Below, one piece after another: positions 5,977 to 47,258 of a DNA stretch of 64,000 nucleotides. Below the pieces are notes generated by a model. That model saw only the letters and a program-made list of their open reading frames with translations, searched no databases and was not told where the DNA came from. This DNA comes from Candidatus Woesearchaeota archaeon CG10_big_fil_rev_8_21_14_0_10_44_13. Lineage in GTDB: Archaea > Nanobdellota > Nanobdellia > Woesearchaeales > UBA12501. The DNA is taken from contig PCXZ01000018.1 of assembly GCA_002762985.1 (NCBI GenBank), positions 741 to 64,740 on the forward strand. Reading direction: 5' to 3'. Each line of letters begins with the position of its first letter. The first letter of the stretch is position 1. The position numbers were made by a program, and so were the translations under genes.

Positions 5977-5991
5977 GGCAAGAGGATAAAT

Positions 5992-6945
5992 ATGGGGGAG
6001 CTTAGAAAAGATTATTTCCTTGACAGATGGGTGATCATCGCGAGCGAAAGGGGCAAGAGGCCTCATGAGTTCGTGCAGGAACAGGTGAAACAGAAGGCTG
6101 GCAAATGCTATTTCTGCCCAGGCAGCGAGGATGAGACTCCCCCTGAGATATTCAGGATTGGCGCAAAGAACAGGTGGAAGATGAGGGTCTTCCCAAACAA
6201 GTTCGCCGCAGTGAGGCAGGAAGGCCAAGCTTCCATAAAGACCGACAACATATTCTATACCTTCTCTGCAAATTACGGCATGCATGAGGTGATCGTAGAG
6301 ACGAATGACCACAAGAAGCAGCTCTGGGACCTCGCTCCGAAAGACATAGTCGACCTGATCTCGCTTTATTCGATGAGGATAAAGGAACTGGGCAAGATGA
6401 ATGGGATAAAGTATGTCCAGGTCTTCAAGAATTCAGGAAAGGAAGGCGGTACATCGATATTGCACTCGCATTCCCAGGTGATCGCATACAATAAGGTGCC
6501 TGAACTGGTGGAACAGGAGGCAAAGGCGATAAAGGAATTCAAGGAGAAGATGAATATCTGCCCTTACTGCTGCATAATCAACAGCGAAAAGGATTCTTTC
6601 AGGAGATGCTTTGAGAACAGGAATTTTGTCGCTTTCGCGCCTTATGCCTCGAGATTCCCTTTCGAGATATGGGTGCTGGCAAAGCAGCATGTGAAAAGCA
6701 TAACTGATCTTGACAACGGCCAGGTAAAGGATCTTGCAGAGGTCATGAACAGCATACTAAAAAAACTGAAGAAGCTGAATGCGCCTTATAATTTCATGCT
6801 GCATAATTCCCCCGCAGGCGAGGATTTCCATTTCCATATCGAGATACTGCCGAGGCTCGCAACATGGGCAGGGTTTGAGTTCAACGGCACGATAATAAAC
6901 ACCCTGCCTCCTGAAGAGGCTGCGAAGTTCTATAGGGGGGAATGA
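5992..6945 (+). CDS. GalT-family nucleotidyltransferase (galactose-1-phosphate uridylyltransferase / nucleotide-sugar phosphorylase-like)
   Basis: N-terminal CYFCPG zinc-type motif, HSHSQV histidine-triad-like motif, duplicated HIT-like halves; 317 aa. Confidence 0.7.
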   Translation: MGELRKDYFLDRWVIIASERGKRPHEFVQEQVKQKAGKCYFCPGSEDETPPEIFRIGAKNRWKMRVFPNKFAAVRQEGQASIKTDNIFYTFSANYGMHEVIVETNDHKKQLWDLAPKDIVDLISLYSMRIKELGKMNGIKYVQVFKNSGKEGGTSILHSHSQVIAYNKVPELVEQEAKAIKEFKEKMNICPYCCIINSEKDSFRRCFENRNFVAFAPYASRFPFEIWVLAKQHVKSITDLDNGQVKDLAEVMNSILKKLKKLNAPYNFMLHNSPAGEDFHFHIEILPRLATWAGFEFNGTIINTLPPEEAAKFYRGE

Positions 6946-6989
6946 AGGTTTTGAGTTGATTGCTCTATCTTTAATGTGTTTTTCTAACA

Positions 6990-7150
6990 ATTTATGCATC
7001 AAAATCAACATTCCATTCGCCTCCAAGGATGAACTTCCTGATATGGCTCATGCCCTCTTCTTTGATTTGCTGAATTACCCCACTACAACCGCTCCCCAGC
7101 CCAGTACGTTGTAGGAGGGGGACGGGGGGGACCTTGGTCCCCCCGTAGAT
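6990..7150 (-). repeat. Intergenic repeat family, copy F (inverted orientation)
   Basis: Reverse complement matches core ...GAAGAGGGCATGAGCCATATCAGGAAGTT...GGAGGCGAATGGAATGTTGATTTTG and hairpin module TAGGAGGGGGACGGGGGGGACC..GGTCCCCCC. Confidence 0.7.
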
Positions 7151-7294
7151 ATTGTTGGTTTATTTCAAAAACATAAATTTTATGAACAAAAACCTAATAA
7201 AAAAACACAAAACCATCACCAATCCAAAAACTATATAAACAACTTCTTTTCATATACTAATAATAAATATCTAAGTGAAAAAAGAGGGGGCTAA

Positions 7295-9139
7295 ATGACT
7301 AAAGTCGTGCATACATTAGGCAATTCTACACTCCAGGGAGAAACACCTAACCCCCATTTCATCCTCACAAACAAGATAGGAGGTTATTTCTCGCTGAGCG
7401 ATTACCAGTCATCAAGGTATCAGGGGGCGTTCTTCTGCGACAATTTCGACATGTTCAAGGTCATAGAGAATATCCTCCCCTTGAATTCCGGGAAAGTCGT
7501 CAAGGTGACGAATAAATTCTACTGCATAGAGAGGGAGAGGGAGAACGGACTGAAAGAGACATTGTTCATGCCTTTGTTCCACAACTCAATAGGGTATCAG
7601 CTAAGCGCTGAAACAGACATACAGATCGATCTTGATGTGAGAAAAGCGTATGATGTCAGGGAATTCGGCAGGTATTACAGGATCTACAAGGAGAAGGACA
7701 AGATAATCATAGAGTTCACGAAAAAGACAGACAGCAAGGAGGACAAGACGCATGCGAAGCAGGAATTCACGGTCTATGTCGTGATAGACAACGGCAAGGA
7801 GTTCAGGAAAGCCAATGAATTCTACCAGGTCAGCTATCCTTTCGACAGGGAAAGGAACTCATGGCCATGGGAGAGGTATGTGTACAGGTCTATCATAATA
7901 AAAGCGGACAGATTGGTCATCTCGTTCTCCAAGAACAAGAACAAAGCCATACAGGAGAATGAGAAGCTGCTCAGCAACCTCAGGAATGTCAAGGAAAAAC
8001 AGCAGATGTATGTGAATATCACGAAGAAATTCGAGGACGAGAAGATGACGATGGCTTACAGGTCTGCATGCTCATCATTGGACCATCTTGCTAATGTGAT
8101 AAGCAACAAGAAAGGCATCTATGCAGGGTTGTGGTGGTTCTTCCAGTACTGGACAAGGGATGAGGCAGTATCCTTGAGGGCATTGATGATACAGGGGAAA
8201 TACGACCTTGTCAAGGACATACTGTTCAGGAAGCTGAAGGAGATAAAAGACGATGGAAGGATCCCTAACAGGTACCCTGCTTCTGATCTCGAGTCTGCAG
8301 ACGGGATAGGCTGGGTCATGAAGAGATGCTATGACCTGTTCGAGGAATTGTACAGGAAAAACCTCATCACGGAATATCTCTCAAAAGATGACCTCACATT
8401 CATGAAGAAAAAAGTGGAGGATTCCGTCTATATGCTGCTGAAGAGGTATACAGCCCAGGATTTTGCCATAAACAGCAAGCTTGAGACATGGATGGACACT
8501 GAATACAGGGGGGATAACAGGGAAGGTATAAGGATAGAGATTCAGGCATTGAGGCTCTGCACTTACAAGCTCATGAAGCTGCTGTGCAGGACAATGAAGG
8601 ATGATGTGGGCCATAATATGGCTGTCCATCTTGAGAACGACCTTGCGAAAAAAGTGAGGGAGAGGTTCTGGAACGGAAGGTATCTCAAGGACGGTGTCAA
8701 TGATGAGACGATAAGGCCTAATGTGTTCATAGCCCATTATGTATACCCTGAATTGCTGTCCAATTCGCAGTGGGAGAAATGCTTCAAGACGATAATGCCT
8801 AAGCTGTGGAACGGCTGGGGCGGCATCTCGACCATAGACAAGGAAAACCCATTGTTCTGCAACTATCATGCCGGCGAGAACAACCAGAGCTACCACAGGG
8901 GCGACTGCTGGTATTGGCTGAATAACCTTGCGGCAGTATGCATGAATAGGGTCAATAAGAGGAAATTCAAGGAGTATGCTGATAAGATCCTTGAAGCGAG
9001 CACCCATGAGATACTGTTCTCAGGTGCGATAGGCCATCATGCAGAGATAAGCTCTGCTGCCAACAGGGAGAGCAAAGGCTGCTTGATGCAGGCGTGGAGC
9101 GCAGCGATGTACATAGAGATGGTTGAGGAGATGTTCTAA
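7295..9139 (+). CDS. Glycogen debranching enzyme (amylo-alpha-1,6-glucosidase, GDE C-terminal domain family)
   Basis: GLWWFFQYWTRDEAVSLRAL motif; 614 aa. Confidence 0.8.
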   Translation: MTKVVHTLGNSTLQGETPNPHFILTNKIGGYFSLSDYQSSRYQGAFFCDNFDMFKVIENILPLNSGKVVKVTNKFYCIERERENGLKETLFMPLFHNSIGYQLSAETDIQIDLDVRKAYDVREFGRYYRIYKEKDKIIIEFTKKTDSKEDKTHAKQEFTVYVVIDNGKEFRKANEFYQVSYPFDRERNSWPWERYVYRSIIIKADRLVISFSKNKNKAIQENEKLLSNLRNVKEKQQMYVNITKKFEDEKMTMAYRSACSSLDHLANVISNKKGIYAGLWWFFQYWTRDEAVSLRALMIQGKYDLVKDILFRKLKEIKDDGRIPNRYPASDLESADGIGWVMKRCYDLFEELYRKNLITEYLSKDDLTFMKKKVEDSVYMLLKRYTAQDFAINSKLETWMDTEYRGDNREGIRIEIQALRLCTYKLMKLLCRTMKDDVGHNMAVHLENDLAKKVRERFWNGRYLKDGVNDETIRPNVFIAHYVYPELLSNSQWEKCFKTIMPKLWNGWGGISTIDKENPLFCNYHAGENNQSYHRGDCWYWLNNLAAVCMNRVNKRKFKEYADKILEASTHEILFSGAIGHHAEISSAANRESKGCLMQAWSAAMYIEMVEEMF

Positions 9140-19040: not shown

Positions 19041-19466
19041 ATGAAGCTGAAAGTCAAAAAACTCCAAGAAGATGCTATTCTTCCTCAGCATGCCAAAAAA
19101 GGCGATGCTGCCATCGACCTGAGTTCGTGCGAAGAGCTTGTTCTTAAGGCAGGAGAGAAGAGGCTTGTGAGGACAGGAATAAGCCTTGCGATACCAGAAG
19201 GCTTTGCCGGCTTTGTATGGGACCGTTCAGGCCTTGCAGCCAATCATTCTGTCCACAGCATAGCAGGAGTAGTCGATTCTGGGTACAGGGGTGAAGTGAA
19301 GGTCGTCCTGATAAACCTCAGCAAGGAGGATTTCAGGATCGAGAAAGGCATGAGGATAGCGCAGATGGCGATCCAGCCTGTTTCCTCAGTGGATGTCGAA
19401 GAAGTTAGGGAGCTGGATAATGATACTGAAAGGGGAAAAGGAGGATTTGGAAGCACTGGAAGATAG
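19041..19466 (+). CDS. dut: dUTP diphosphatase
   Basis: GDAAIDL ... RSGLA dUTPase motifs; 141 aa. Confidence 0.85.
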   Translation: MKLKVKKLQEDAILPQHAKKGDAAIDLSSCEELVLKAGEKRLVRTGISLAIPEGFAGFVWDRSGLAANHSVHSIAGVVDSGYRGEVKVVLINLSKEDFRIEKGMRIAQMAIQPVSSVDVEEVRELDNDTERGKGGFGSTGR

Positions 19467-20157: not shown

Positions 20158-21606
20158 TTACCCTCCTTTTTTGTCCAATTTCAAATCATCATCCTGATTG
20201 TAGTGCAGATCGTATCTCAATGCCAATTCTGCCTTCTGGAGCTCTGAACCTATGTCCAAAGCATGGCTCATCTGAGAGATGACATGTTTCCTGTCAAGCA
20301 TCCTGAATATCTCTGCTGCGTTCCTGCCCCTGAACTCGTCCAGCTTCTTGCCTTCCTGGCTGTAATGCGAGATCACAATCTCTTTCTTCTCCTTATCCAC
20401 CTTTATCACAACATTGCCTCTTGGGTCCCATTCATGCTCCTTGCCCTTGTAATATATGTCAAGGATCTCCTGAACTTCTTTCATGCTCTCTTCATATATA
20501 TGGGCAGAAGCCGAGAATATTGTCATAGAGCCCATCTTTATCCCTGTCTCTTCAGAAACGTGCTTCTGGAGTTTCCTCAGCGCAAAGGCGTTCTGCGGCC
20601 ATCCCCTGTACATGTCATGGCTCCTGAAATATGCATTCATGAACAGCCTGTTGTCCTGCACGATGAAATTGACAAGGTCAAGGCATGGCGCATGCTCGTT
20701 ATACACATCCTTGCCAACATCCCATGTGACTGCTATGGCTCTCCTTGTGAAAGGCTCTTTCTTCAGCTTTTCTATGACTGACCTTATCTGGTCTACGCCT
20801 TCATGATCCATTAGCCTCTGGCCATAGGTGTAGTTTATGCCCTGGATTTTGTTGGCAGTCAGGACTTGGGGGTAATATGCCTCAAGCTCTTTTTTCGTGA
20901 AATTGAAGAAATCGTACCATCTCGGCTCTTCGGGGTCTTCGTCAGTTATTACAGCGACGATATTGAGCAGCTCTTTCTGCGTAGTGCTGTGGTGGCTTTT
21001 CTTTATGTGGCCGAACCTCATTATCTTGCTAAGGAGGATTATCCATGCCATCCCGACTGTCTTCGCCCTTATCTTGAATACAGAGCTGTCTGTAGGGAAT
21101 CTTTCAGGCAGCTCAAGCTTTGGCTCTGGGAAAAGCCTTGGCTTCCCAAAAGGCTTCCTGCCCTTGTCAATAGAACCTATCCTTTCTGCTATCTTCTTCG
21201 GATCGATCACTCCGATCATATTTATTATCTCAACATTCTTCCTGAATTCTGCAACCGCTTCATCAGGTATCTCTTTCTCTATGTGTGCGTTTTCAACTCC
21301 GAGAATGTTATGCCTGCTGTCTATGCCGTTTTTTGCCAGGCTTAAAAGCGCTTCACCGCTCCCTGACTTGTCTGTGCCGCAAAGGATTATGTATCTTATC
21401 GCAGGATTCGCGAATATGTTCCTTATTATGGCATTTATGCCTGCCTTCGAGTACAATTGGCCGATTGTAGAGAAAGAATTCCTGTCAAGGCCTTTCGCTA
21501 TCATCTCTTTCTCAGTCCACAAGGTGATTATGCTGATATTGCTGTCCTTATCACCGACTATAAGATTCTCAGAAAAATAAATAGGCCATCCCTCCTTCAT
21601 CTGCAT
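20158..21606 (-). CDS. thyA: Thymidylate synthase (ThyA family) with an ~170-aa N-terminal extension of unknown function
   Basis: C-terminal TS domain with RRAIAVTWD and HAPC nucleophile motifs; 482 aa in total. Confidence 0.75.
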   Translation of the reverse strand: MQMKEGWPIYFSENLIVGDKDSNISIITLWTEKEMIAKGLDRNSFSTIGQLYSKAGINAIIRNIFANPAIRYIILCGTDKSGSGEALLSLAKNGIDSRHNILGVENAHIEKEIPDEAVAEFRKNVEIINMIGVIDPKKIAERIGSIDKGRKPFGKPRLFPEPKLELPERFPTDSSVFKIRAKTVGMAWIILLSKIMRFGHIKKSHHSTTQKELLNIVAVITDEDPEEPRWYDFFNFTKKELEAYYPQVLTANKIQGINYTYGQRLMDHEGVDQIRSVIEKLKKEPFTRRAIAVTWDVGKDVYNEHAPCLDLVNFIVQDNRLFMNAYFRSHDMYRGWPQNAFALRKLQKHVSEETGIKMGSMTIFSASAHIYEESMKEVQEILDIYYKGKEHEWDPRGNVVIKVDKEKKEIVISHYSQEGKKLDEFRGRNAAEIFRMLDRKHVISQMSHALDIGSELQKAELALRYDLHYNQDDDLKLDKKGG

Positions 21607-21609: not shown

Positions 21610-22308
21610 TCATCTGAATATATCCTTTGATTTTTCCCATACTATCCTTTGTATGTCCCCTATCTGCATTATCCTTCCTTCTTTTACGCATTCGATCATG
21701 ATCCATCGCTCTTTTTTTGCTATCTCCATGTAGGCCTGCTCTGTGTCCTTCAGGTGGGAAGTGTCTGCTTCGTGGATATCCTTCCTGTTGCCTCTTTTTG
21801 TTATCAATGTCTGGGCGATCTCAGCAGGGACATGCAGGAAAATAACCGCATCAGGCCTCGGTATCATGTTCTGGCTGTATTCAAGGTCATCTATCCATTC
21901 CATGAACCTCTTCCTTTCCCCTGGATCCTTTATCTTTGATGCCTGATGGCCTTTGTTCGATTGCTGGTACCTATTGGCGATTATGATATCGCCTTCTTCA
22001 AGCCATCTTTTCATCATGGGTGCTGCATCAACCCTGTCCTCTGCATAGAATCTTGCGGCATCATACGGGCTTACGTCCTCTACTTTGCCGAATTTCCCGG
22101 CAAGATAATCCTCTACTTTCTTTGCGCATGGCCTGCCGTACTGCGGGAAATCGATTGTTTTTACCTTGAAGCCTTCTTTCTCAAGCTTTTCCACAAGAAG
22201 CTTTGATTGGGTAGCCTTGCCAGAGCCGTCAGTGCCTTCGATTACGATAAGTTTTCCTTTATGCTCCGATTTTCCTCTTTTAGGCATGTGTACCCCCAAG
22301 CCAAGCAA
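21610..22308 (-). CDS. tmk: Thymidylate kinase
   Basis: LIVIEGTDGSGKATQ P-loop; likely start at the internal Met (MPKRGK, ~22287). Confidence 0.85.
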   Translation of the reverse strand: MLGLGVHMPKRGKSEHKGKLIVIEGTDGSGKATQSKLLVEKLEKEGFKVKTIDFPQYGRPCAKKVEDYLAGKFGKVEDVSPYDAARFYAEDRVDAAPMMKRWLEEGDIIIANRYQQSNKGHQASKIKDPGERKRFMEWIDDLEYSQNMIPRPDAVIFLHVPAEIAQTLITKRGNRKDIHEADTSHLKDTEQAYMEIAKKERWIMIECVKEGRIMQIGDIQRIVWEKSKDIFR

Positions 22309-22401
22309 ATTATCAGGTTTTTATATAGTTTGTGGTGGTAAAAGTTTAAGGTTGTTTTGTTTATAGTGCTATTATTGGCAGAAGGAATTTTTTTACATAG
22401 A

Positions 22402-22513
22402 ACGCCGCCATCACCGCGGCTCGACGATCTCCTCACGTCGTTCGGAGCCCTACTCGGCACCCCGGAGGGGCCGACCCCCGCCTCGCCGAGCGCAGTGGCG
22501 GCGTGCGCAGGAC
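22402..22513 (+). other. GC-rich structured island, candidate cis-regulatory or small RNA upstream of the ACS gene
   Basis: ~110 nt of >70% GC in a ~40% GC genome; 9-bp terminal helix (ACGCCGCCA / TGGCGGCGT) enclosing at least two internal hairpins. Confidence 0.3.
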
Positions 22514-22566
22514 AAAACAAAAAAATATATAAACCAACCAATAAAATAATGTTATCAGGGGGTTTT

Positions 22567-24564
22567 ATGGACGTCGTAAAGACTATATTCGAAGGAGCGA
22601 AAAAACTGCTTGCATTGGCAGAGAAAAGCCTTAAAGAAGGTGATGTGAAGCCTTTTTCTGATACTGAGTACAATCTTCCTGTAGTATATGCGCTGTTCGG
22701 CAGGGAGATAAAGGGAAAAGAGGATGCTGCTGAGATTCTCGATAAGATAAGGAAAAAGCTAGAGAAAGAGCAGACATTGGAGAATGCTCTAAAGGCAGGG
22801 GTTTATTCTTATGCCCTGCTGGAGCTTGTTGAAGCCGTAAAATATGCTAAAGAGAATAAGACCAATTTCATCCCTGACACTGTGATAAGGAGCCTGGGCC
22901 TGCCTCTGGTCAATGGGACGATCCCTGGCGTCGCTGTTGTTGTCGGAAAGGCAAAAGACGAAGAGGAGATGAAAAAAGTCCTTGAGGAAGCTGTCTCACA
23001 TGCGCTACTTGTCCTTGTTGTCGGAGAATGCTGCAATCAGTATGATAAGACAAAATTTACTCCTGAGAAAAATGTCATCCCTATAGGCGCAGAACCCACA
23101 AACCTTGCCCACGTCATGAATATTGTGTTTAGGATACCGATGATCTTCGCAAAGATACCTCCTGGAGAGAAAAAAGAGATAGAAGAGTATATAACGGAGA
23201 GGGTTCCTGCTTTTGTGGTGGTTCTCGGAGAGATTGATGAGGTTGTTTTAGCTTTGGGAGCCGGCTGTTTAAGGTTAGGATTTCCAATCACTACAACAAA
23301 TGAAGCTGGAAAAGCAGTGGAACAAATCTTTGTAGGCCCTGCAGAAAAACTTATTGATGAAGGTGTAAAAAGAAAGGGGATTAAATCGAAGAAACTGGAC
23401 ATAAGACTGCCTATGGGCTATGGGAACCTTTATGTCGGGGAAACGATAAGGAAAGAGGATATGGCCCTGGAATTCGGCGGGAAGAAGTCAAAGGCATTCG
23501 AGCTTGTCCAGAAAGATGATTCCATAGAAGACGGTAAAGTCGAGATCATCGGCAAGGACATTGATGGCCTTGCAGAGAATGCGAATGTGGGTTTGATAGT
23601 CAGTGTGGCAGGAGACTTTGAGAAGGATGCAGAGCCTGTGTTCGAGAGGATGATACATGAGCACCTCAATAAGATAGAGGGATTCATGCATCTCGCTTCA
23701 AGGGATATCATATGGTGCAGGTTCTCCAATGAGGCCAAGAAGAAAGGGCTGAAGCTGAAGAATCTGGGAGAAGTCCTTGTGAGATCGATGAAACAGGAAT
23801 TCCCATTGATAGAGAAGGCTTCAGCGACAATAATAACAGATGATGATGAGTTCAGCAAGCAGCTTGCGCATGCGAAACATGTCTACAAGGAGAGGGATGA
23901 CAGGATAAAAGGCCTTACAGAGGAGAATGTGGATATGTTCTATGGCTGCACTATGTGCCAGAGCTTCGCCCCTAATCATGTATGTGTCATAACACCCGAG
24001 AGGATTGCGCTGTGCGGCGCGATAACATGGCTGGATGCAAAGACTGCGATGAAGATAAATCCTTCTGGCATGAATTTTGAGATACCTAAGGGAAGCATCA
24101 TTGACAATGAGAAGGGGGAATATGAAGGTGTGAATAAGATCGTGAAGCAGAAATCCCACGGCAAGATCGACCGTTTCCATCTCCATTCGATATTCGGCTT
24201 CCCGCATACAAGCTGCGGCTGTTTTGAAGCGATCGCGTTCTATATCCCTGAAGTCGACGGCATAGGCATTGTGCACCGTGATTTCAAGGGAGAAACCCCT
24301 ATCGGGATGAAATTTTCCACTCTTGCAGGAATGACTGGAGGAGGGCTGCAGTCAGAAGGGCTGATCGGAGTGGGAACTGCTTATGTTGCATCTAAGAAAG
24401 CGTTCCTGGGCCAGGGCGGCAGGGGGAAGATAGTTTGGCTGCCGAAGGAGCTGAAAGAGAGGTATAAGGATGATATTCCTGCTGAGATTTTTGGGAAGAT
24501 TGCGAGTGAGGAGGATGTGAAGGATATAAATGAGCTGCAAAAATGGGTTGATGGAAAGAAATAG
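22567..24564 (+). CDS. acsB: Acetyl-CoA synthase catalytic subunit (AcsB/CdhC family), bacterial-length
   Basis: C-x2-C-x8-C-x9-C ... (+67) C-G-C spacing identical to the A-cluster ligands of Moorella AcsB; YVGETIRKEDMALEFGG middle-domain motif; alternative start at 22549. Confidence 0.8.
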   Translation: MDVVKTIFEGAKKLLALAEKSLKEGDVKPFSDTEYNLPVVYALFGREIKGKEDAAEILDKIRKKLEKEQTLENALKAGVYSYALLELVEAVKYAKENKTNFIPDTVIRSLGLPLVNGTIPGVAVVVGKAKDEEEMKKVLEEAVSHALLVLVVGECCNQYDKTKFTPEKNVIPIGAEPTNLAHVMNIVFRIPMIFAKIPPGEKKEIEEYITERVPAFVVVLGEIDEVVLALGAGCLRLGFPITTTNEAGKAVEQIFVGPAEKLIDEGVKRKGIKSKKLDIRLPMGYGNLYVGETIRKEDMALEFGGKKSKAFELVQKDDSIEDGKVEIIGKDIDGLAENANVGLIVSVAGDFEKDAEPVFERMIHEHLNKIEGFMHLASRDIIWCRFSNEAKKKGLKLKNLGEVLVRSMKQEFPLIEKASATIITDDDEFSKQLAHAKHVYKERDDRIKGLTEENVDMFYGCTMCQSFAPNHVCVITPERIALCGAITWLDAKTAMKINPSGMNFEIPKGSIIDNEKGEYEGVNKIVKQKSHGKIDRFHLHSIFGFPHTSCGCFEAIAFYIPEVDGIGIVHRDFKGETPIGMKFSTLAGMTGGGLQSEGLIGVGTAYVASKKAFLGQGGRGKIVWLPKELKERYKDDIPAEIFGKIASEEDVKDINELQKWVDGKK

Positions 24565-24600
24565 TTATGTAATTTTAACCTGACATTTCAAAAATATTTG

Positions 24601-24800
24601 TGGGGAAACTACGTTTCCCCTTACCCCCTTCCTACATTGTGCTGGGAAGGGGAGCAAAAGCAGGCATTCAGGTGAGTTGTTTAAGGCAAAGAAGAGGGCA
24701 TGAGGCATATAGGGAAGTTGTGTGATGGAGCCGAATGGAATGTTGTTTTTGAAAAAAACAACTAAGAAAACCGAAGGTTTTCTGTTGAGGAAAAAATAGT
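24601..24800 (+). repeat. Intergenic repeat family, copy C (between acsB and cooC)
   Basis: TGGGGAAACTACGTTTCCCCTTACCCCCTTCCT hairpin module; CATGAGGCATATAGGGAAGTTGTGTGATGGAGCCGAATGG core; second hairpin GTTGTTTTTGAAAAAAACAAC. Confidence 0.7.
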
Positions 24801-24823
24801 TTTATGGGGAAAAGATTATTAAA

Positions 24824-25564
24824 ATGATAGTAGCAATCTCAGGCAAAGGCGGCGTAGGCAAGACAGTCTTCTCAGCTTTGACCATAAAATACCTCACGTC
24901 AAAAGGGAAGAAAGTCCTTGCTGTCGATGCAGACCCTGATGCGAACCTTGCAGAGGCCCTCGGTGTTGAAGTCGAGAACAGCATCGGCGGGATAAGGGAG
25001 GAATTGCAGAAGATCCAGCACAAGATACCTGGCGGACTGACAAAAGAGGCTTTCCTGCAGAGGAAGATACAGGAGATAATAAGCGAACATAAGGGTTTCG
25101 ACCTTCTTGTTATGGGGCGTGCAGAAGGCCAGGGCTGCTATTGCTGGGTCAACAACATATTGAGAGAAAACATAGACAAATTATCTGCCAATTATGATTT
25201 CACAATAATCGACTGTGAAGCGGGGCTTGAGCATCTGTCAAGAAGGACGACAAAAGATGTTGATATTATGTTCGTAGTGCTTGACCAATCAAGGCTTTCC
25301 CTTAACACTGCATTAAGGATAAAAGAGCTGGCAAAAGAGGTTGATATAAATTTCAAGAAGCTTTTCATAGTGCAGAACAAGGGCCAGAACAAGAACTTTG
25401 AGAAAGAGGCAGGGAAGGAAGGAATCAAGGTCATTGGAGTCCTGCCTGAAGACAATGAGATCGTGAGGCTGTACAGCGAGGGGAAAGCCATAACTGGCAT
25501 AAGCGAGAAGGCAAATGCTTATTATTCTGTCAAACAGGTTTGGGAGAACCAAAATATTTATTAA
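24824..25564 (+). CDS. cooC: CooC/AcsF-type Ni-insertion ATPase (MinD/ParA family)
   Basis: Deviant Walker A SGKGGVGKT and GQGCYCW CxC nickel-binding motif; 246 aa. Confidence 0.8.
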   Translation: MIVAISGKGGVGKTVFSALTIKYLTSKGKKVLAVDADPDANLAEALGVEVENSIGGIREELQKIQHKIPGGLTKEAFLQRKIQEIISEHKGFDLLVMGRAEGQGCYCWVNNILRENIDKLSANYDFTIIDCEAGLEHLSRRTTKDVDIMFVVLDQSRLSLNTALRIKELAKEVDINFKKLFIVQNKGQNKNFEKEAGKEGIKVIGVLPEDNEIVRLYSEGKAITGISEKANAYYSVKQVWENQNIY

Positions 25565-25603
25565 CTCTCCCCGAATCCTCCCTCTCATGAAAGGGGGTTC
25601 AAT

Positions 25604-26212
25604 ATGAGGATTTCTGCAGTCATAGAAGCTGATACTATAGAGAGCGCCCACCCCAAGGTCCTGGAATTGATCCATAATGAGGGGGATGAGCACAGCGACG
25701 AGTATGGGGCCAAGACAAGGGAAGTCTTCAACCTAATGATAAAGGTGAAGAACCCGACAGAGAAGATGATTCCGCATGCTTTCCACATGACGAAGATGGA
25801 ATTGGAGGAGTATGCCCTCAAATATTACCTCAGCCCGAAAGTCGAAGGCGAAGTCTACACCTATGGGGAAAGGATGCTTGATTTCAAAGGGGATGGGGAA
25901 TACAACCAGATCCAGCATATCATCGACAAGCTCAAGAAGAATGCAAACTCAAGGAGAGCTGTTGTTGTCTTATGGGATCCCACAAGGGATGGGACAAAGA
26001 TTGAGCATCCTCCGTGCATGGACATGCTGGTGTATAACCTCAGGAACGGGAAGCTCCATTGCACTTCTGTTTTCAGGAGCAATGACATGCTGAGGGCATG
26101 GCCGGCCAATGCATTCGGGATAACAAGATTGCAGGAATTCATCGCAGGAGAGATAGGATGCGAAGTCGGCACATTGACGACAATGTCAATAAGCGCGCAT
26201 ATTTATCTGTGA
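25604..26212 (+). CDS. thyA: Thymidylate synthase, short archaeal type (ThyA family)
   Basis: SRRAVVVLWD and EHPPCMD nucleophile motifs; 202 aa; paralog of the 20158..21606 ORF. Confidence 0.75.
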   Translation: MRISAVIEADTIESAHPKVLELIHNEGDEHSDEYGAKTREVFNLMIKVKNPTEKMIPHAFHMTKMELEEYALKYYLSPKVEGEVYTYGERMLDFKGDGEYNQIQHIIDKLKKNANSRRAVVVLWDPTRDGTKIEHPPCMDMLVYNLRNGKLHCTSVFRSNDMLRAWPANAFGITRLQEFIAGEIGCEVGTLTTMSISAHIYL

Positions 26213-26220
26213 GGATATCC

Positions 26221-27231
26221 ATGAAAACTAAAACGATATTGATTTTGGCAATTCTATGCATCTTCATTGTTTCATGCAGCGAGCAGCCTGGACAGCCTGA
26301 AGAAACAGGAGCCAAAGACACTAAAGCAGTTCAAACAATCCAGGAGGAAGCCAAAGCGCCTGAAATAACAAGAGAAAGCAAAATCCCTTCAGATGCAGTT
26401 AAGGTTACTCCTCAGACAGACATCAATCCTCCAAAATCAAAATCAGACGAATACGATGACCCTATTCCTTTATCCTCGGCAATCAACAGCGCAGGAGCTG
26501 AAGATTCCCCATTCATGATGCCAGATGGAAACACATTATATCTCTTCTTCACGCCCGATGTAAGGGTCCCTGTTGAAAAACAGCTTCTTGACGGTGTCAC
26601 AGGAATTTGGGTTTCAAAAAAAGTGATTGGAGAATGGGGCAAACCTGAAAGAGTTGTGCTCCAGGACCCTAAAAAGCTTGCGCTGGACGGCTGCGAGTTC
26701 GTCCTCGGCAGCACGATGTGGTTCTGCTCTGCACGGGAAGGCTATGCAGGCATAAACTGGTTCACAGCAGAATTCAAGGATGGGAAATGGCAGGATTGGA
26801 AGAGTGCGGATTTTAACCCTGATCATAAAGTAGGAGAGCTGCATATCTCAAATGACGGCAATGAGCTTTATTATCATTCAGACAGGCCCGGCGGCAAAGG
26901 CGGCCTGGACATCTGGGTGTCAAAAAAGGTCAATGGGGAATGGCAGCAGCCGGAAAATGTTGAGGCAGTCAACTCAGAGAGGGATGATGGGTGGCCTGCA
27001 TTGAACCCTGAGGAGAATGAGCTTTGGATTTACAGGGATTACGGGCTGTTGAGGTCAAAGAAAATCAATGGAGAATGGCAGACGCCTGAACCGATGTTCT
27101 CGCCGCTTGCGGGCGAAGCGACACTGGACAATGAAGGGAATGTCTATTTTGTCCATCATTATTTCAAGGACGATAAGATGATAGAAGCGGATATTTACGT
27201 TGCGCATAAAAAAGCGGTAAAACGGCGGTAA
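26221..27231 (+). CDS. Lipoprotein with PD40/TolB-like beta-propeller repeats
   Basis: MKTKTILILAILCIFIVSCSEQ lipobox; repeated DGN.LYF/YHSDRPGGKGG.DIWVS units. Confidence 0.55.
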   Translation: MKTKTILILAILCIFIVSCSEQPGQPEETGAKDTKAVQTIQEEAKAPEITRESKIPSDAVKVTPQTDINPPKSKSDEYDDPIPLSSAINSAGAEDSPFMMPDGNTLYLFFTPDVRVPVEKQLLDGVTGIWVSKKVIGEWGKPERVVLQDPKKLALDGCEFVLGSTMWFCSAREGYAGINWFTAEFKDGKWQDWKSADFNPDHKVGELHISNDGNELYYHSDRPGGKGGLDIWVSKKVNGEWQQPENVEAVNSERDDGWPALNPEENELWIYRDYGLLRSKKINGEWQTPEPMFSPLAGEATLDNEGNVYFVHHYFKDDKMIEADIYVAHKKAVKRR

Positions 27232-27241
27232 GGTGAATAGG

Positions 27242-27712
27242 ATGAAAGCAAAAATCATGGTTTTGGCCTTTATTGTGATGTTCGCATTGAGCGGCTGCGG
27301 AAGCACAAAGTGGGATATCTTCAAGGACGGGAAATTCAGCATAAGCTATCCTGTGATGAATATGGGCAAAGACCTGAATGAGAACCTGATGCTGCAGACA
27401 GGCAATTCCAGATGCATGCTCCTGGTGAACAAGTACCCTGGGCAGTCAGACGTGAAGGGATTCGCAAACTACATAAAAGACCTGCTGACAAAAGAACCTG
27501 CAACGACAATCACAAGCGAGGACATCAATGACTCAGAAGCCAATTTTGAACTGAGGGTCATCTACAGCAACAAGCCGTACATCTCAAAAGTCAAGTTAGT
27601 GTCGTGCGAAGGTGCAATGTACAATATAATGATGAACTGCCAGGAAAACGGCTATGAAAAGAATGCCCAGGATGTGGAATCCACACTAAGCTCGGTAAAA
27701 TGCAGTGAATGA
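27242..27712 (+). CDS. Lipoprotein, function unknown
   Basis: MKAKIMVLAFIVMFALSGCGS lipobox. Confidence 0.5.
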   Translation: MKAKIMVLAFIVMFALSGCGSTKWDIFKDGKFSISYPVMNMGKDLNENLMLQTGNSRCMLLVNKYPGQSDVKGFANYIKDLLTKEPATTITSEDINDSEANFELRVIYSNKPYISKVKLVSCEGAMYNIMMNCQENGYEKNAQDVESTLSSVKCSE

Positions 27713-27716
27713 GTGA

Positions 27717-28484
27717 ATGATAAACAAGACAAGGATAGGCGATATCGAAATCGGAGGGGAATCGAGATTCTTCAGGTTCGAAGAGAAAGATGATTTCAGG
27801 ATGGCATTCGCCCTTGCATATGATGAGCATAACCCAAAAATCATCGAAGAGAATGATGTGGATGCTGTCGCTATAACTATAAGAAGTGATAATCCTGAGG
27901 AAGCGATAAAGCAGGTCGAGGATTTCAGGAGTAGATGCAAGAAGCCGTTGATAATCTACACCCAGGACAACCCTAACACCGACCATATAATCATAGATGC
28001 TATAGCAAGGAGATTCCCCGGCCAGCATTTCCTTTTCTGCTCAGCGACAGTCAAGAACAAGGCGGCAGATATAGCGAATTCCGCCCTCAAGTTCGGCCAC
28101 AATGTAAGCGCTTATACGACATTGGATCCTGGCGGAGCCATCTCCCTTAACAAAGACCTCTTGAAGACGGGCCTGAAGCCTAAGCAGATCGTCATCGACC
28201 CGCTGACATCATTCATAGGGTATGGCATTGAATACTCTATAAGCGCGATGGAGAGGATAAGGCTGGATGCATTAGCCACAGACGAGACATTGAGGATGCC
28301 TATTCTTGCAGACCTGTCCGCTGTAAACCAGCTGAGAGAGGCCGATACGAAGGAAAAACAGCTCCATTGGGAGACCATGACTGCAGTCGCATTGATCGCT
28401 GCAGGCGCTGACCTGTTCATATTCAGGCACATAGAATCGCTGAGGAAAGTGAAGGGATTCGCAGAAAAGATGAAGAAGAGATAA
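27717..28484 (+). CDS. acsD: Corrinoid iron-sulfur protein small subunit (AcsD/CdhD family)
   Basis: IVIDPLTSFIGYGIEYSISAMERIRLDAL and WETMTAVALIAAGADLFIFRH match AcsD motifs recalled from Moorella. Confidence 0.7.
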   Translation: MINKTRIGDIEIGGESRFFRFEEKDDFRMAFALAYDEHNPKIIEENDVDAVAITIRSDNPEEAIKQVEDFRSRCKKPLIIYTQDNPNTDHIIIDAIARRFPGQHFLFCSATVKNKAADIANSALKFGHNVSAYTTLDPGGAISLNKDLLKTGLKPKQIVIDPLTSFIGYGIEYSISAMERIRLDALATDETLRMPILADLSAVNQLREADTKEKQLHWETMTAVALIAAGADLFIFRHIESLRKVKGFAEKMKKR

Positions 28485-28521
28485 TGCACACATGAGATAA
28501 ACAGCCGAGGTAAAAAACAAT

Positions 28522-29649
28522 ATGAAACTGAGCCCATTCAACCTTTATCCGCATCTTCCGAAGAAGAACTGCAGGGAATGCGGGGAATCCACATGCCTGG
28601 CTTTCGCCGTGAAGCTGCTGAACAGGGAAGCAGAGCTTGAGAAATGCCCGCATGTCAATGATGAACAGAAATCAAAGCTTAAGGCCATGTTCGAGCCGCC
28701 TGTGAAAGAGATAAGATACAAAGGATATAAGATGGGGGGAGAAGAGGTGATTCACAGGCATGAGCTGACATTCCATAATCTTCCGCTAATTGCATCGAAA
28801 AACAGGCCGGATATATTTTTTGAGAGGGCTGGCAAGAGGATGTCTGTTGAGCTTAAAGAGGCTCAGGATGACATCGGCGGGATCATATGGTGCAAAGAGA
28901 AGGCAAGAGCAGATGAATCCATAGAGAAGGCAAAAAAGGATGATCTGCCCGTGATAATGAGGGTGAATTCGATAGAAGAGGCAAAATCATTCTCAACAAG
29001 ATATGACAAGATCATGGTTGAATTCCACGGCTCTCCTGCAGAGGTCTTCAGGAATCTCAAGGATTACAGGGAGAGGGCGATAAAGGGTGAGCAGGGATGC
29101 AATCTTCCGACGATGTTCCTGGCTGATGATGAGGCAGAAGCGGCTTATGCATTGATGAGGTATGCGAATATTGTCGTGATAAACAACGAGGAAAAGGAAT
29201 TCCTTGAGCCATTCATGTATCTGCGCCAGGCGATATTCTCTGACCCGAGGATCCCTGCAAAAGTGGATGCTATACTCTACAAGATAGGGACTCCTGATGA
29301 GAACAGCCCTATCTTCGTCGTAGGAAATTATGCCCTGACATATTACACTGTCTCAGGCGACATAAACTCCCAGAAGATAAACTCCTATCTCATCGCATTC
29401 GACACTGAGGGTTTGAGCGTCTGGACAGCAGTCGCTGCCAATAAGTTCCTCCCTTCAAAGATAAGAGAGGTAATTGAAAACTCAAGGCTTTCTGAGAGGG
29501 TGAAGAACAGGACTCTGGTCATCCCGGGCTTCGCAGCGCCCTTAAAGGGAGCGATTGCAGAGGAAACCGGATGGAAGGTGGTTGTAGGGCCTGAGGACAG
29601 CAGGGAGATAGGGAATTTTATAGAGGAGATGAAAAGAGAGAAGCAATGA
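28522..29649 (+). CDS. acsC: Corrinoid iron-sulfur protein large subunit (AcsC/CdhE family), shortened
   Basis: N-terminal C-x2-C-x4-C-x16-C [4Fe-4S] motif (CRECGESTC...C); 375 aa. Confidence 0.7.
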   Translation: MKLSPFNLYPHLPKKNCRECGESTCLAFAVKLLNREAELEKCPHVNDEQKSKLKAMFEPPVKEIRYKGYKMGGEEVIHRHELTFHNLPLIASKNRPDIFFERAGKRMSVELKEAQDDIGGIIWCKEKARADESIEKAKKDDLPVIMRVNSIEEAKSFSTRYDKIMVEFHGSPAEVFRNLKDYRERAIKGEQGCNLPTMFLADDEAEAAYALMRYANIVVINNEEKEFLEPFMYLRQAIFSDPRIPAKVDAILYKIGTPDENSPIFVVGNYALTYYTVSGDINSQKINSYLIAFDTEGLSVWTAVAANKFLPSKIREVIENSRLSERVKNRTLVIPGFAAPLKGAIAEETGWKVVVGPEDSREIGNFIEEMKREKQ

Positions 29650-38305: not shown

Positions 38306-40318
38306 TCAGCCAATTGTGCTGAGTTCAATATCCGTCTTAAGCTCCATTATCTCATAATAGATCTTCTTCTTGTCATCTATCGAAGGGAGCCTTGAATACA
38401 TCGGTTTGAGCCTGTTGTAGAGGTCCTTTGCCCTGTGTATGTCCTTTATCTCAAGAGCATTCCTTGCGGCCTCGATCATAGAATAGATGTCGAATGTCTC
38501 CTTTCTCCTTGTCTCCATCATGTCCTTCTCTACTTCCTCTTCTGCGGGCCTTTCAATCAGCTCCCTTGCTACATAAGCGCCGAATTTCTCCTTTTTCAGC
38601 TCTCCTTCCTCTTTTTCTATCCTGTGGTAAGCCTGCTTGACCCTCTTCTCTTTCTTGTTCAGTATGCTTGATCTTTCTGACAATGCTTTTTCCCTCCTCT
38701 CGATCTCCTCAAGATCCATGAGCCTAGTGGATTTCTTGTTTATCTCTGTATCAAGCTCCCTTATATCCTTCTCCATCTGCTGCTCTATCTTGTCGCGGGA
38801 TTTCTTCAGGGATTCCACATTGGCCCTTAACTCCTTGACCTTGCTTATCTTGTCAAGTTTCCTCTCGACGTCGTCAGTCTTCTGCTGGAGGTTCTTCTCT
38901 ATGTTGACTATGTTGTTCTCCCTCTGCCTGAGGTCTGCCTGCATCTCCTCAAGATCCCTCCTCTTCATGTCGAGCTTTGCAAGCTCTGCCCTCAGGCTGG
39001 TCTCCTTGCCGGAAAGCATGATCCTTGTCTTTTCCATCTCCTCTACGAGCCTCAATACCTCATCCTCTCTTGACTTGAGGAGGTCATTGCTCTTCTCGAG
39101 CTCTTCTACGCTCTTCAGCAGCTCGTCTTCTTTATCAGCAAGTATCCTCTCCTTCTCGTCAAGGTCCTTGACATATGTGGATTTCTCGTCCACTTCCTGC
39201 TGAAGCGTCCTCCTCTTGTCTGTAAGCGAAAGTATCTCCTTCTCTATGGTCTCTGATCTCTTGTTCATAGAACTCTCCTTCGATGATATCTCTTTTTCCT
39301 TGTCTATGGTGAACTTCTCCCTCTCATTGAGGTTCTTTTCCTTTATCAGAAGCTCGTTCTGCTTGGCTCTCAGGCCCTCGTCCAGCTTGTTCTGCTGCTG
39401 CTCTTTCTTTGCTATGCCCTCTTCCCTGTCAAGCAGCTCATCATGCTTCTGCCTGAGGTATTTCCTCTCTGTTTTTGTCAGCTTGATCGTCTCCTTGAGC
39501 TTCTCGTCAGCCTTCTTGTTCTCGATTTCGAGGGCTTCTTTCTGCTTTTTTATTAGGTCTGTCTCCCTCATGAGGGAATTCCTGCTCTTCTGGAGGGCCT
39601 CGATCTCTTTCTTCGCTACCTTGACCATCCTGTTGACCTGGCTTTCGCGCTCATCATGCTTCTTGTGGGATTCTGATATGGCCTTCTCTTTCTCTATCAG
39701 GGAAGACTCTTTCTGGTCGAGATCGAGTTTCCTCTGCGTGATCTTGTCTGAAAGCTTCAGGAGCAGGTCCTGTTTTTCCTTGAGGGTCTTGTCATGGACA
39801 GGCGCCTCCTTGCTCTTGAATTTCGCCTGCTGCTCAAGCTCTTTGAGCTCAGCCTCTTTCTGCTGGATGCCTTCAAGCAGGCTGTCATGGACGTCCTGCA
39901 GGTTCTTTATCTTCTTCTCAAGCTTGTCTTTTTTCAGCGGGATCTTGTCTTTCTCCTTCAGCTCTGCTTCCCACCTGTCAAGCTCTTCCTTCCTTTTTGT
40001 GAATATGACCTGTTCAGGGATCCTGGTTTCTGCCAGGGATTCTGCTTTCTGTTTCTTGCCTTTCTTTTCCTTCTTTTCGGGAATTGCCGCTTTTATATCG
40101 CCTATGTCGCCTTTGATCTCCTCTTTTGGGAATTCAGGTATCTCTTGAAGCGGAGGAAGCCCAGCAAACTCGTCTACCTTGCCCTCTTTGCCCTCTTCAG
40201 GAGATTTCTTCTTCTTGCCGAATAATTTAGAAAACAGCCCTTTCTTCTCTTTGGATCCTTCAGGCAAGGGAGGTGGCCCTAAAATCTCTTCCATCTTTTT
40301 TATGTCGTCATCAGCCAT
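38306..40318 (-). CDS. Large Lys/Glu-rich coiled-coil protein
   Basis: ~670 aa of heptad-like K/E-rich sequence; start chosen at MADDD. Confidence 0.55.
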   Translation of the reverse strand: MADDDIKKMEEILGPPPLPEGSKEKKGLFSKLFGKKKKSPEEGKEGKVDEFAGLPPLQEIPEFPKEEIKGDIGDIKAAIPEKKEKKGKKQKAESLAETRIPEQVIFTKRKEELDRWEAELKEKDKIPLKKDKLEKKIKNLQDVHDSLLEGIQQKEAELKELEQQAKFKSKEAPVHDKTLKEKQDLLLKLSDKITQRKLDLDQKESSLIEKEKAISESHKKHDERESQVNRMVKVAKKEIEALQKSRNSLMRETDLIKKQKEALEIENKKADEKLKETIKLTKTERKYLRQKHDELLDREEGIAKKEQQQNKLDEGLRAKQNELLIKEKNLNEREKFTIDKEKEISSKESSMNKRSETIEKEILSLTDKRRTLQQEVDEKSTYVKDLDEKERILADKEDELLKSVEELEKSNDLLKSREDEVLRLVEEMEKTRIMLSGKETSLRAELAKLDMKRRDLEEMQADLRQRENNIVNIEKNLQQKTDDVERKLDKISKVKELRANVESLKKSRDKIEQQMEKDIRELDTEINKKSTRLMDLEEIERREKALSERSSILNKKEKRVKQAYHRIEKEEGELKKEKFGAYVARELIERPAEEEVEKDMMETRRKETFDIYSMIEAARNALEIKDIHRAKDLYNRLKPMYSRLPSIDDKKKIYYEIMELKTDIELSTIG

Positions 40319-40450
40319 TCTAATCCCCCAAATCATCCCTCTGATATAGTTAACAATATATCTATTTATATATCTTTGTTGTAATTTTAGAATGAAAACA
40401 GGGCGTATTAAACAAAAAGATTTATAAATAAGGCCTAAAACAGCCAAAGT

Positions 40451-44208: not shown

Positions 44209-44779
44209 GATGATATTGCTACTATATAAATGTTTCGGAACAGCTATTACTCTTGAGTAACAACTGCCCTTAATCCGCAGAATTCTTGCTTTAAAGGCCT
44301 CAATTCGCTTTTTACCTTGCTTCCTGTTTGCGAACTCATCTTCCTGTGTCCTGGCTCAATCTGAGATTGCTCTTGATTGCGTTTTGATTTCAGGCAATCT
44401 TCAATCTGTGAAGCTCCACTGATATTTAAGCTCTTGCCTTATTTTGTGAGAATTTGAGCCAATATGGCCATGGTACCATTTTTAGGACTAAAAATAGGAC
44501 TAAAAGTTGTGTTATAGTCTTTATATACTTTGAAATCTTATAGAAGATTGTGCCAGATTTTGTGCAAGATTTTGTAACAATTCGTTGCAAAGGGGTTTTA
44601 TATACTTTGAAATCAATAAGCTTCCGTTGCTTCAACGTTGTTTTTGTTAAAGATGTTAAAATAGTCACTTCACTAGTAGTGTGCTTATAAAATGTATACC
44701 TAAAAAAATTGTACAATTTTCTGTACAAAAAGTTTAGTTAGGGTATTTATATAGTCCAAAAACAATCAGGAGGTTCAAG

Positions 44780-45289
44780 ATGATGCAGTACAAACGAGAG
44801 CCTTTAGAGGATTTTGAGATAGAAGCCCTGAAGAAGGCCTGCGAATCATTTGAAGATTCATTAGTCGTCAATGTCCTGTTAGAGACGGGCATGAGAGTAT
44901 CTGAACTTGCCAATCTGACAAAGGATCAAATCTCTTGGCAGAGAGACTGCATCGCAACAATAGGCAAGGGCGGAAAAAGAAGGGTAATCCCTATGAGCAA
45001 AGCCACGAGGTTTTACCTTACTGAACATTTTAAAGACCATTCAAAGATAGAGTTTGGCCAGAGATGGATTCAGAAGATTGTAAAAAGAATAGCTGAAAAA
45101 GCCAGTATAATGAAGAAGATAAGCCCTCATGTTCTCAGGCATACTTTTGCAGTCTGCTACATCCACAAAGGCGGAAACATAAGGGCTTTGCAGGGCATCT
45201 TAGGCCATTCCCACATACAGACCACCGATATGTACCTCAACTATTCGGGCATAAGGGTTCTGGAGGATTTCAAGCGTGTATGGGAATGA
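44780..45289 (+). CDS. Tyrosine recombinase, catalytic domain only (169 aa)
   Basis: R (ETGMRVSE), K, HVLRHTF, LGHSHIQTTDMYLNYS catalytic residues. Confidence 0.7.
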   Translation: MMQYKREPLEDFEIEALKKACESFEDSLVVNVLLETGMRVSELANLTKDQISWQRDCIATIGKGGKRRVIPMSKATRFYLTEHFKDHSKIEFGQRWIQKIVKRIAEKASIMKKISPHVLRHTFAVCYIHKGGNIRALQGILGHSHIQTTDMYLNYSGIRVLEDFKRVWE

Positions 45290-46350: not shown

Positions 46351-46364
46351 GCGAGAAGCCGTTA

Positions 46365-46392
46365 AAACCTCGAAAACAGGCTTTTCGAGGTT
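46365..46392 (+). terminator. Perfect 11-bp stem hairpin after the 45280..46350 gene
   Basis: AACCTCGAAAA cagg c TTTTCGAGGTT. Confidence 0.35.
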
Positions 46393-47150: not shown

Positions 47151-47258
47151 TAATCGGGCATACCCCTCGGCTTTCTTTTATAATTTTGTGTTAATTTGGT
47201 ATATAATGCCCTCAGTTTAATCCATTTATGGCCGGAAAGAATAAAATTATATAAATTC

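Follow-up and report, generated by a model that had tools for sequence, protein, structure and literature searches.

Can an acetyl-CoA synthase (ACS) and a corrinoid iron-sulfur protein (CFeSP) serve an archaeon in which no gene for carbon monoxide dehydrogenase (CODH) stands beside theirs? The question is raised by a 64 kb stretch of contig PCXZ01000018.1 (hereafter the window), from a metagenome-assembled genome (MAG) of Candidatus Woesearchaeota, a DPANN lineage, in which predicted genes for an ACS, a CooC/AcsF-type ATPase and both CFeSP subunits lie on the plus strand between positions 22567 and 29649. Ten proteins of the window are identical to the NCBI entries PIN86833-PIN86902 (locus tags COV19_02405 to 02695), encoded on a contig of 87.5 kb. 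The source organism is a streamlined, small-genome archaeon, as had been surmised in an earlier reading of the same DNA (the original prediction). Tentatively, at a little short of an even chance, the locus is read here as a self-contained, CODH-independent ACS/decarbonylase that supplies methyl or one-carbon (C1) units, with thymidylate (dTMP) synthesis as a linked consumer. Which way the reaction runs, what becomes of the CO, the thymidylate link and the absence of CODH from the genome as a whole are inferred.

The gene at 22567-24564 (+) encodes a protein of 665 aa that is predicted to be a long-form ACS with all ligands of the A-cluster present. Pfam domains CODH_A_N, CdhC and ACS_CODH_B_C are found (163 bits for PF03598, 287 for PF19436). 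The protein also passes the cdhC model TIGR00316, with 525 bits against a cut-off of 356. The A-cluster motif reads Cys461-x2-Cys464-x8-Cys473-x9-Cys483, followed by Cys550-Gly-Cys552, with 67 positions from Cys483 to Cys550. Aligned to the solved structures 6ytt and 8cjb over 633 residues (E ~1e-157), these cysteines match the A-cluster column for column, and they are invariant in an alignment of 11 sequences. The original prediction had named this product an ACS from the cysteine spacing and had noted its AcsB-like length; the first point is borne out by the register with the structures and by the profile searches, and the second by an N-terminal A1 domain (PF18537). The likely start of the gene is the ATG at 22567, upstream of which stand a TATA-like box rich in A/T and, as a Shine-Dalgarno-like site, AGGGGG. 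Databases call the protein as 735 aa from a TTG at 22357, a frame that runs through a GC-rich non-coding element and is probably over-extended; since it is this call that the databases carry, the 665-aa form has no exact match in them. Scans for sigma-70 promoters and intrinsic terminators were uninformative because the host is archaeal.

As to type, the two parts of the protein give different answers. Over the catalytic domains, identity is 50-56% with archaeal CdhC and at most 50% with the bacterial AcsB sampled. A neighbour-joining tree of these domains (70 sequences, 360 columns, 100 bootstraps; a distance method only) places the window clade among the archaeal CdhC-type sequences, whose separation from bacterial AcsB is recovered in 100 of 100 bootstraps. 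Neither equivalog model of bacterial AcsB is reached, with 745 bits for NF040764 (cut-off 800) and 759 for NF007078 (cut-off 809). The nearest named relatives are ACS proteins of Methanocaldococcus infernus (47%), a Methanocaldococcaceae MAG (46%) and a Bathyarchaeia paralogue (45%). The A1 domain matches PF18537 at 54 bits and reaches 163 bits to the isolated bacterial N-domain structure 6yua_A, 169-198 bits to long archaeal forms and 30-75 bits to CdhA. By these comparisons the protein is an archaeal-type catalytic core joined to an AcsB-like A1 domain. The likeness to bacterial AcsB and not archaeal CdhC, first drawn from protein length, thus holds for the N-terminal domain and not for the catalytic ones. 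A recently acquired bacterial ACS, horizontal acquisition having been offered as one explanation of the locus, is rejected on the strength of the tree and of the gene order ACS-CooC-AcsD-AcsC, which is that of archaeal cdhC-cooC-cdhD-cdhE.

A set of 80 archaeal and bacterial loci taken from GTDB genomes was used for comparison. At seven loci (L017, L022, L033, L047, L054, L085 and L086, several of them named Altiarchaeota) the tblastn match to cdhA consists of two adjacent pieces: an N-terminal piece with the catalytic region, and a C-terminal piece homologous to the ACS A1 domain and lying directly upstream of cdhC. No cdhB was detected at these seven loci. At L035 and L041 cdhA matches as a single piece and abuts cdhC without a gap. 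The possibility that the N-domain of the window ACS is a fused C-terminal half of such a split CdhA was considered and rejected, as it scores 60-75 bits to CdhA halves vs 163 to A1 and 169-198 to the long archaeal forms. That archaeal catalytic domains occur in a long-form ACS is relevant to how the A1 domain of bacteria relates to the division into CdhA and CdhC in archaea.

The next gene on the same strand (24824-25564) encodes a P-loop ATPase of CooC/AcsF type, identified by Pfam CbiA and AAA_31 and by its motifs. Both the P-loop GKGGVGKT, of the deviant Walker A kind, and the pair C105-Y-C107, inside GQGCYCW as first noted, are present, and the protein is 46-52% identical to the product of the cooC-like gene that archaeal cdh operons carry after cdhC and before cdhD. 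No dedicated hidden Markov model in the libraries used reached its cut-off. From its motifs and relatives it is presumed to be the nickel-insertion factor of the ACS. The spacer between the two genes (24565-24823) is 259 nt long and holds two hairpins, at about 24602-24620 and 24765-24783, so that the gaps of 40 nt or less given in the original prediction do not apply here; nor are the downstream genes a contiguous set, as a thymidylate synthase gene and two lipoprotein genes separate CooC from AcsD. On a related contig (L092, 2214-3207), where the ACS is 81% identical, two small open reading frames (ORFs) of 178 and 151 aa, with no Pfam family, lie between ACS and CooC.

The CFeSP is encoded at the distal end of the cluster. 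Its small subunit, AcsD/CdhD-like and 255 aa long (27717-28484, +), carries IDPLTSFIGYGIEYSISAMERIRL, aligned to the CFeSP small subunit 2h9a_B. It matches PF03599 (CdhD) at 105 bits and remains under all NCBIfam cut-offs for cdhD/AcsD, e.g. 143 vs 280. Its AlphaFold model, with a predicted local distance difference test (pLDDT) value of 94, is a complete, compact TIM barrel of eight beta-alpha units, for which Foldseek returned template modelling (TM) scores of 0.86-0.91 to the CFeSP small subunits 2h9a_B, 4djd_D and 9fzy_E. The protein is without the first 45-50 residues of bacterial AcsD and without the 90-180-residue N-terminal region of archaeal CdhD, aligning only to residues 179-378 of a 403-aa CdhD. 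In an exhaustive scan of 1.84 billion representatives, a single other one was found at E<=1e-30 (72% identical), and then nothing above 40%.

The large subunit, AcsC/CdhE-like and 375 aa long (28522-29649, +), is matched by Pfam FeS and CdhD and passes the NF003195 equivalog with 331 bits (cut-off 306). Its N-terminal [4Fe-4S] motif, C17-x2-C20-x4-C25-x16-C42 (PF04060), is the one already described for it. Sequence alignment to 4djd_C and 2h9a_A covers only residues 2-94 and 202-369, of which the latter is the C-terminal corrinoid-binding domain, aligned to 275-436 of 4djd_C and 277-441 of 2h9a_A. The middle segment, unaligned by sequence, is about 107 aa vs about 177 in the solved proteins, i.e. 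some 70 aa shorter, and is modelled as approximately five beta-alpha units after a beta-meander (pLDDT 88 for the protein); Foldseek matched the model to CFeSP large subunits at E 1e-33. When 5.8 billion clusters were searched by word index, the short form turned up in only five of them (clusters at 90% identity), which are 73-78% identical to the window protein, and matches after those were at about 33% with comparable coverage; a scan of JGI metagenomes with the short AcsC alignment gave just one further contig, of 2.2 kb. Judged by alignments and models together, the two proteins form a predicted CFeSP heterodimer, as had been proposed, in a trimmed version that is nearly unique in public data. 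At 255 + 375 aa it would offer a natural minimal form for structural and engineering work.

Relatives on independent contigs (L089 and L092) allowed the ratio of nonsynonymous to synonymous change (dN/dS) to be estimated. It is 0.06 for ACS (measured against the 81%-identical relative), 0.06 for CooC, 0.05 for AcsD and 0.09 for AcsC, compared with 0.21 and 0.17 for HAD and NMD3, the genes next to them. At the protein level the module is likewise 73-89% identical to the relatives, and the HAD and NMD3 neighbours 49-62%. The thymidylate synthase (ThyA) is 89% identical in L089, the top value of the gene set, with synonymous sites saturated. These values indicate that the module genes are functional and under strong purifying selection, tighter than that on their neighbours. 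The neighbourhood of TFS, NMD3, HAD, ThyA, AcsD and AcsC recurs in independent samples. A first scan of GTDB with a single protein found no relative, which places the lineage without a close relative among the species representatives.

No partner CODH was found for this ACS in the sequence inspected. Searches by tblastn with archaeal CdhA and CdhB queries in all six frames of the window matched solely the ACS N-domain, whose homology to CdhA is known. Among the window genes scanned or pre-annotated with Pfam (all ORFs of at least 300 aa and most smaller ones, plus pre-computed tables for called genes at 1-34.6 kb and 51.4-64 kb) there is no Prismane, CO_dh, AcsE-type Pterin_bind, MtrH, FTHFS, FolD, MetF or Mer. 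The lack of CODH, AcsE and methyl-branch genes in the window, as originally described, is thereby upheld. The same three were absent from a further 8.4 kb beyond the right end, where a CODH operon had been named as the finding that would remove the orphan aspect, and from three related contigs (L089, L090 and L092). The lack of an AcsE partner had been remarked on; an archaeal CFeSP exchanges its methyl group with a pterin and uses no separate methyltransferase (preprint PMC13370988), so that the absence of AcsE is expected.

These findings would fit the following scheme. The ACS would cleave acetyl-CoA at its Ni-Ni-[4Fe-4S] A-cluster to CoA, CO and a methyl unit. The CO would be released or passed to an unlinked enzyme, and the methyl group would move to Co(I) of the CFeSP. 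Being of archaeal type, the CFeSP could then give the methyl to a pterin carrier without AcsE, or straight to an acceptor enzyme, furnishing C1 units to the cell with dTMP synthesis as the main consumer (ThyA, Tmk and dCTP deaminase genes being adjacent). The trimmed small subunit and the retained A1 domain are in keeping with such a mode. In archaea the N-terminal region of CdhD scaffolds the CODH-containing acetyl-CoA decarbonylase/synthase (ACDS) supercomplex (PMC13370988), and its absence from the AcsD-like protein fits a CODH-free mode. The bacterial A1 domain adds an interface between ACS and CFeSP (PMC13370988), which would be a reason to keep it where CODH is lacking.

A precedent exists. 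In Dehalococcoides mccartyi, AcsB and AcsCD operate without CODH, AcsE or MetF to take the methyl group of acetyl-CoA for methionine, with release of CO, and the methyl is thought to go from the CFeSP to a core methionine synthase (PMC7005905). Among some methanogens mesB is found in operons with acsC-acsD (PMC7857596). D. mccartyi and the window lineage have in common an ACS, a CFeSP and a maturation ATPase (AcsB, AcsCD, CooC) with no CODH or AcsE partner, a proposed cleavage of acetyl-CoA that feeds the methyl to an anabolic acceptor and yields CO on the side (PMC7005905, PMC7857596), and the setting of an anaerobe with a reduced genome. They differ in that the absence of CODH is established from closed genomes in D. 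mccartyi and for about 72 kb in the window lineage; in the acceptor, which is MesB in the former, whereas the window has a linked thymidylate synthase and no Meth_synt_2 gene; and in the host, here a DPANN archaeon with archaeal-type catalytic domains and much shorter CFeSP subunits. The view that a standalone ACS/CFeSP would be unusual is therefore tempered by this known CODH-less case. The module is best classed with the CODH-less ACS/CFeSP of Dehalococcoides, though it is archaeal in type, of DPANN origin, with a minimal CFeSP and a conserved ThyA partner. DPANN archaea are viewed as metabolically minimal, and an intact, selected nickel ACS in Woesearchaeota would extend to Archaea the Dehalococcoides-style half pathway for C1 supply.

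Comparison with the complete systems is also informative. The window module resembles archaeal ACDS (CdhABCDE) in that its catalytic domains cluster with CdhC, its genes follow the order ACS-CooC-delta-gamma, its CooC is close in sequence and AcsE is dispensable. It departs from ACDS in having no CdhA or CdhB in the window or the 8.4 kb beyond, in the extra AcsB-like N-terminal domain of its ACS, in a delta subunit without the disordered and coiled-coil N-terminal scaffold, and in the shortened middle domain of gamma. With bacterial CODH/ACS (Moorella, Carboxydothermus, Clostridium) it shares a three-domain ACS of about 700 aa, an N-domain at 163 bits to 6yua vs 30 to archaeal CdhA, and the CFeSP heterodimer architecture recovered by fold search; full-length ACS identity is only 39-43%, however, the catalytic domains fall outside bacterial AcsB, NF040764 is missed and neither AcsA nor AcsE is present in the window. 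The long-form ACS of M. infernus and other Methanocaldococcaceae, and that of a second set of genes in Bathyarchaeia, are the nearest named relatives (44-47%) and have the same A1 plus catalytic architecture within the archaeal-type half of the tree, but the delta and gamma subunits that go with them are full-length proteins of 335 and 454 aa. The second Bathyarchaeia set, like the window, consists of ACS, delta and gamma without a CODH gene of its own; unlike the window, it stands directly upstream of a complete cdhABCDE operon and has no ThyA linked to it. Duplicated long-form ACS, delta and gamma genes beside complete cdhABCDE were seen in Bathyarchaeia at L003/L010 (1693-13566), L025, L036 and L067.

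The thymidylate synthase embedded in the cluster, and the dTMP-synthesis neighbourhood around it, had been overlooked in the original prediction. The gene (25604-26212, +) encodes a methanogen-type ThyA of 202 aa that passes TIGR03283 with 200 bits (cut-off 174.55) and in which the PPC motif of the catalytic cysteine, RSND and AHIY align to solved ThyA. In L089 the order ThyA-AcsD-AcsC is kept with gaps of 8 nt and 3 nt, and the synteny of HAD, TFS and NMD3 downstream is as in the window; ThyA was linked to cdh genes in none of the 80 comparison loci. Immediately upstream of the module are genes for a dTMP kinase, a second ThyA as part of a fusion protein, a NUDIX protein and a dCTP deaminase/dUTPase.

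It could be, though it is distinctly unlikely, that the methyl of thymine comes from the methyl carbon of acetyl-CoA, with ACS and CFeSP acting as a dedicated C1 generator for DNA synthesis and ThyA fed by methyl-CFeSP. The operon ThyA would then obtain its carbon from methylated CFeSP, with a salvaged pterin as go-between or, most boldly, by TrmA-like chemistry straight from methyl-Co(III). For ThyA of the methanogen type, the identity of the C1 donor has yet to be settled (PMC9012536). If true, the direct route would mean that thymidylate is made with a corrinoid and without folate, a parallel to the folate-independent methionine synthases MesB and MesC, and the module presents a testable C1 source for thymidylate where folate or pterin metabolism is obscure.

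Several observations weigh against a self-contained module of this kind, and against its thymidylate link. Nothing in the operon ThyA, an ordinary enzyme of the methanogen ThyA family, points to altered chemistry. ThyA needs a methylene and not a methyl unit, and no interconverting enzyme of Mer/MetF type is encoded in the window. ACS-CooC and ThyA-AcsD-AcsC are found on separate short contigs in the relatives, and in a compact genome genes may be neighbours by chance. The window also has no gene for an enzyme that supplies acetyl-CoA, for a reductive activator of the corrinoid or for cobamide salvage. The sequence inspected comes to about 72 kb of a genome that is probably near 1 Mb. Finally, in five of the 80 comparison loci (L014, L032, L060, L061 and L062, from organisms that include Methanobacterium and Methanothermococcus) the ACS-CFeSP genes lie at least 7 kb from any cdhA, as judged on 7-10 kb of upstream sequence only, so that local absence does not prove genomic absence. 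The orphan status first proposed therefore holds for the sequence inspected and is weakened as a claim about the genome.

An unlinked cooS or cdhA elsewhere in the genome, with ordinary CODH/ACS chemistry, is the main and a serious rival, although on balance it is judged somewhat unlikely. The locus would then encode a Wood-Ljungdahl-type carbonyl branch, either fixing carbon or oxidising acetyl-CoA, and the adjacency of ThyA would be incidental. The five loci just named, in which ACS-CooC-CdhD-CdhE has no cdhA within the upstream sequence, argue for it, as does the fact that the ACS has kept its A1 domain, the part in contact with CODH in the complexes of bacteria. Genome work at Crystal Geyser is also cited as having often found Wood-Ljungdahl markers in Woesearchaeota, in the citation of Probst et al. 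by Liu et al. 2018. Other studies point the opposite way: a survey of DPANN places the pathway in Altiarchaeota and describes it as missing from other DPANN phyla (PMC8407392), and the main text of two Woesearchaeota-wide genomic studies makes no mention of CODH, ACS or the Wood-Ljungdahl pathway, one citation of Probst et al. aside. Moreover, cdhA is adjacent to the ACS gene in 64 of the 80 comparison loci, yet no CODH is seen in the 64 + 8.4 kb or on the three related contigs, the AcsD-like protein lacks the region of CdhD that holds CODH in archaeal ACDS, and there is no methyl-branch gene in the window.

In a further alternative the ACS would work without CODH in the direction of synthesis, joining CO from the environment or a host to a methyl group delivered through the CFeSP from methyl-pterin or another donor, and so providing acetyl-CoA to a cell that would have little other means of forming it. 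The ACS reaction is reversible (PMC13370988), and the MAG derives from a CO2-rich groundwater system (NCBI record names; MAG list of Huang et al.). Against this, a supply of free CO is speculative, the window encodes no methyl-donating methyltransferase (MtaB/MttB/MtvB-type, AcsE or MtrH), and the neighbourhood is anabolic (dTMP) and not catabolic; the proposal is a long shot. That the contig was mis-binned from a non-DPANN organism, or that the genes are decaying and without function, is highly improbable and largely refuted: the CFeSP subunits are cut short by comparison with those characterised and miss several NCBIfam cut-offs, and the composition of the window breaks at about 44-52 kb, but the ACS cluster lies at least 15 kb from that low-GC island, the TFS-NMD3-HAD-ThyA-AcsD-AcsC neighbourhood occurs in independent samples, the MtrA-ThyA-DUF4346 fusion in the flank is a typical protein of DPANN and candidate phyla radiation (CPR) organisms, dN/dS is 0.05-0.09 with all metal ligands intact, and both CFeSP models are confident, complete folds.

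The fusion protein just mentioned is encoded at 20158-21606 (-), in a divergent neighbouring unit, and was assigned by Pfam and NCBIfam matches to MtrA-like, ThyA and PterinBD-DUF4346 parts. Its MtrA-like domain, of corrinoid-binding fold, matches PDB 5laa, and its ThyA domain is 36% identical to the operon ThyA. The architecture (460-510 aa, at times with a dTMP kinase added) was present in all 120 cluster representatives listed, of 564 matches, and named carriers include Woesearchaeota, Aenigmatarchaeota, Nanoarchaeota and Patescibacteria (Kerfeldbacteria, Wolfebacteria). From this distribution it would seem that lineages with ultra-small genomes commonly use the fusion as a thymidylate synthase; its two extra domains might conceivably serve in pterin recycling. 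Its candidacy as an ACS-specific partner was rejected, the architecture being common in Patescibacteria and other DPANN. The dTMP kinase (21610-22308, -), divergent from the ACS gene, was recognised by Pfam Thymidylate_kin, with matches to NF005923 and TIGR00041 that are under their cut-offs. This unit is preceded by the NUDIX gene and by the dCTP deaminase/dUTPase-family gene at 19041-19466 (+), the latter taken from pre-computed Pfam DCD and dUTPase matches (L001 6685-7110; window coordinates are +12356).

Between the divergent dTMP kinase and ACS genes, just upstream of the ACS promoter, is a GC-rich structured element (22389-22525, +). It is the sole 100-nt stretch above 66% GC in the window, reaching 76% GC over 100 nt, and its plus strand is predicted to fold into a three-way junction with a 10-bp closing stem (-53 kcal/mol, z = -2.3). 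No Rfam match was obtained for it even at E<=10, and no tRNA was found by ARAGORN, with introns allowed or not. A GC-rich stretch with partial similarity is found at the corresponding place in the relative L092. The element may be a small structured RNA.

Two lipoprotein genes lie between ThyA and AcsD. The first (26221-27231, +) encodes a protein with PD40 repeats (Pfam PD40) and a signal peptide and lipobox in its translation, and the second (27233-27712, +) a small lipoprotein with the lipobox LSGC, for which there was no Pfam or NCBIfam match. Both (26221-27712) are absent between ThyA and AcsD in L089, the 73%-identical relative, which suggests an insertion in the window lineage and makes ThyA-AcsD-AcsC the conserved core. 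The PD40 lipoprotein thus probably belongs to a lineage-specific insertion, outside the module.

Further along the window, a low-GC island at about 44400-52400 (32-38% vs about 45%) forms a compositional break. It is flanked by phage-integrase-family genes at 44780-45289 (+) and 51670-52404 (-) and carries LemA, uridine-kinase-like and 2'-5' RNA ligase-family genes together with several ORFs that belong to no family. A search of its surroundings for att-like direct repeats gave none, and an independent Logan assembly of the locus stops at about window position 44254, just short of the island, which is probably an integrated element.

Three other features of the window are recorded. The largest unannotated gene (38306-40447, -) is an ORF of 713 aa with no Pfam family. 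At 53874-55052 (+) a protein with a GGDEF (diguanylate cyclase) domain is encoded in this archaeal genome, adjoining endonuclease V. Near the left end, a glycogen metabolism cluster (1039-9139) comprises a GH57 enzyme, a glycosyltransferase (GT4/GT5), a glycogen synthase of PF05693 type (469 bits), a nucleotidyltransferase resembling GalT and a debranching-type enzyme (GDE_C), with a TrmB regulator nearby.

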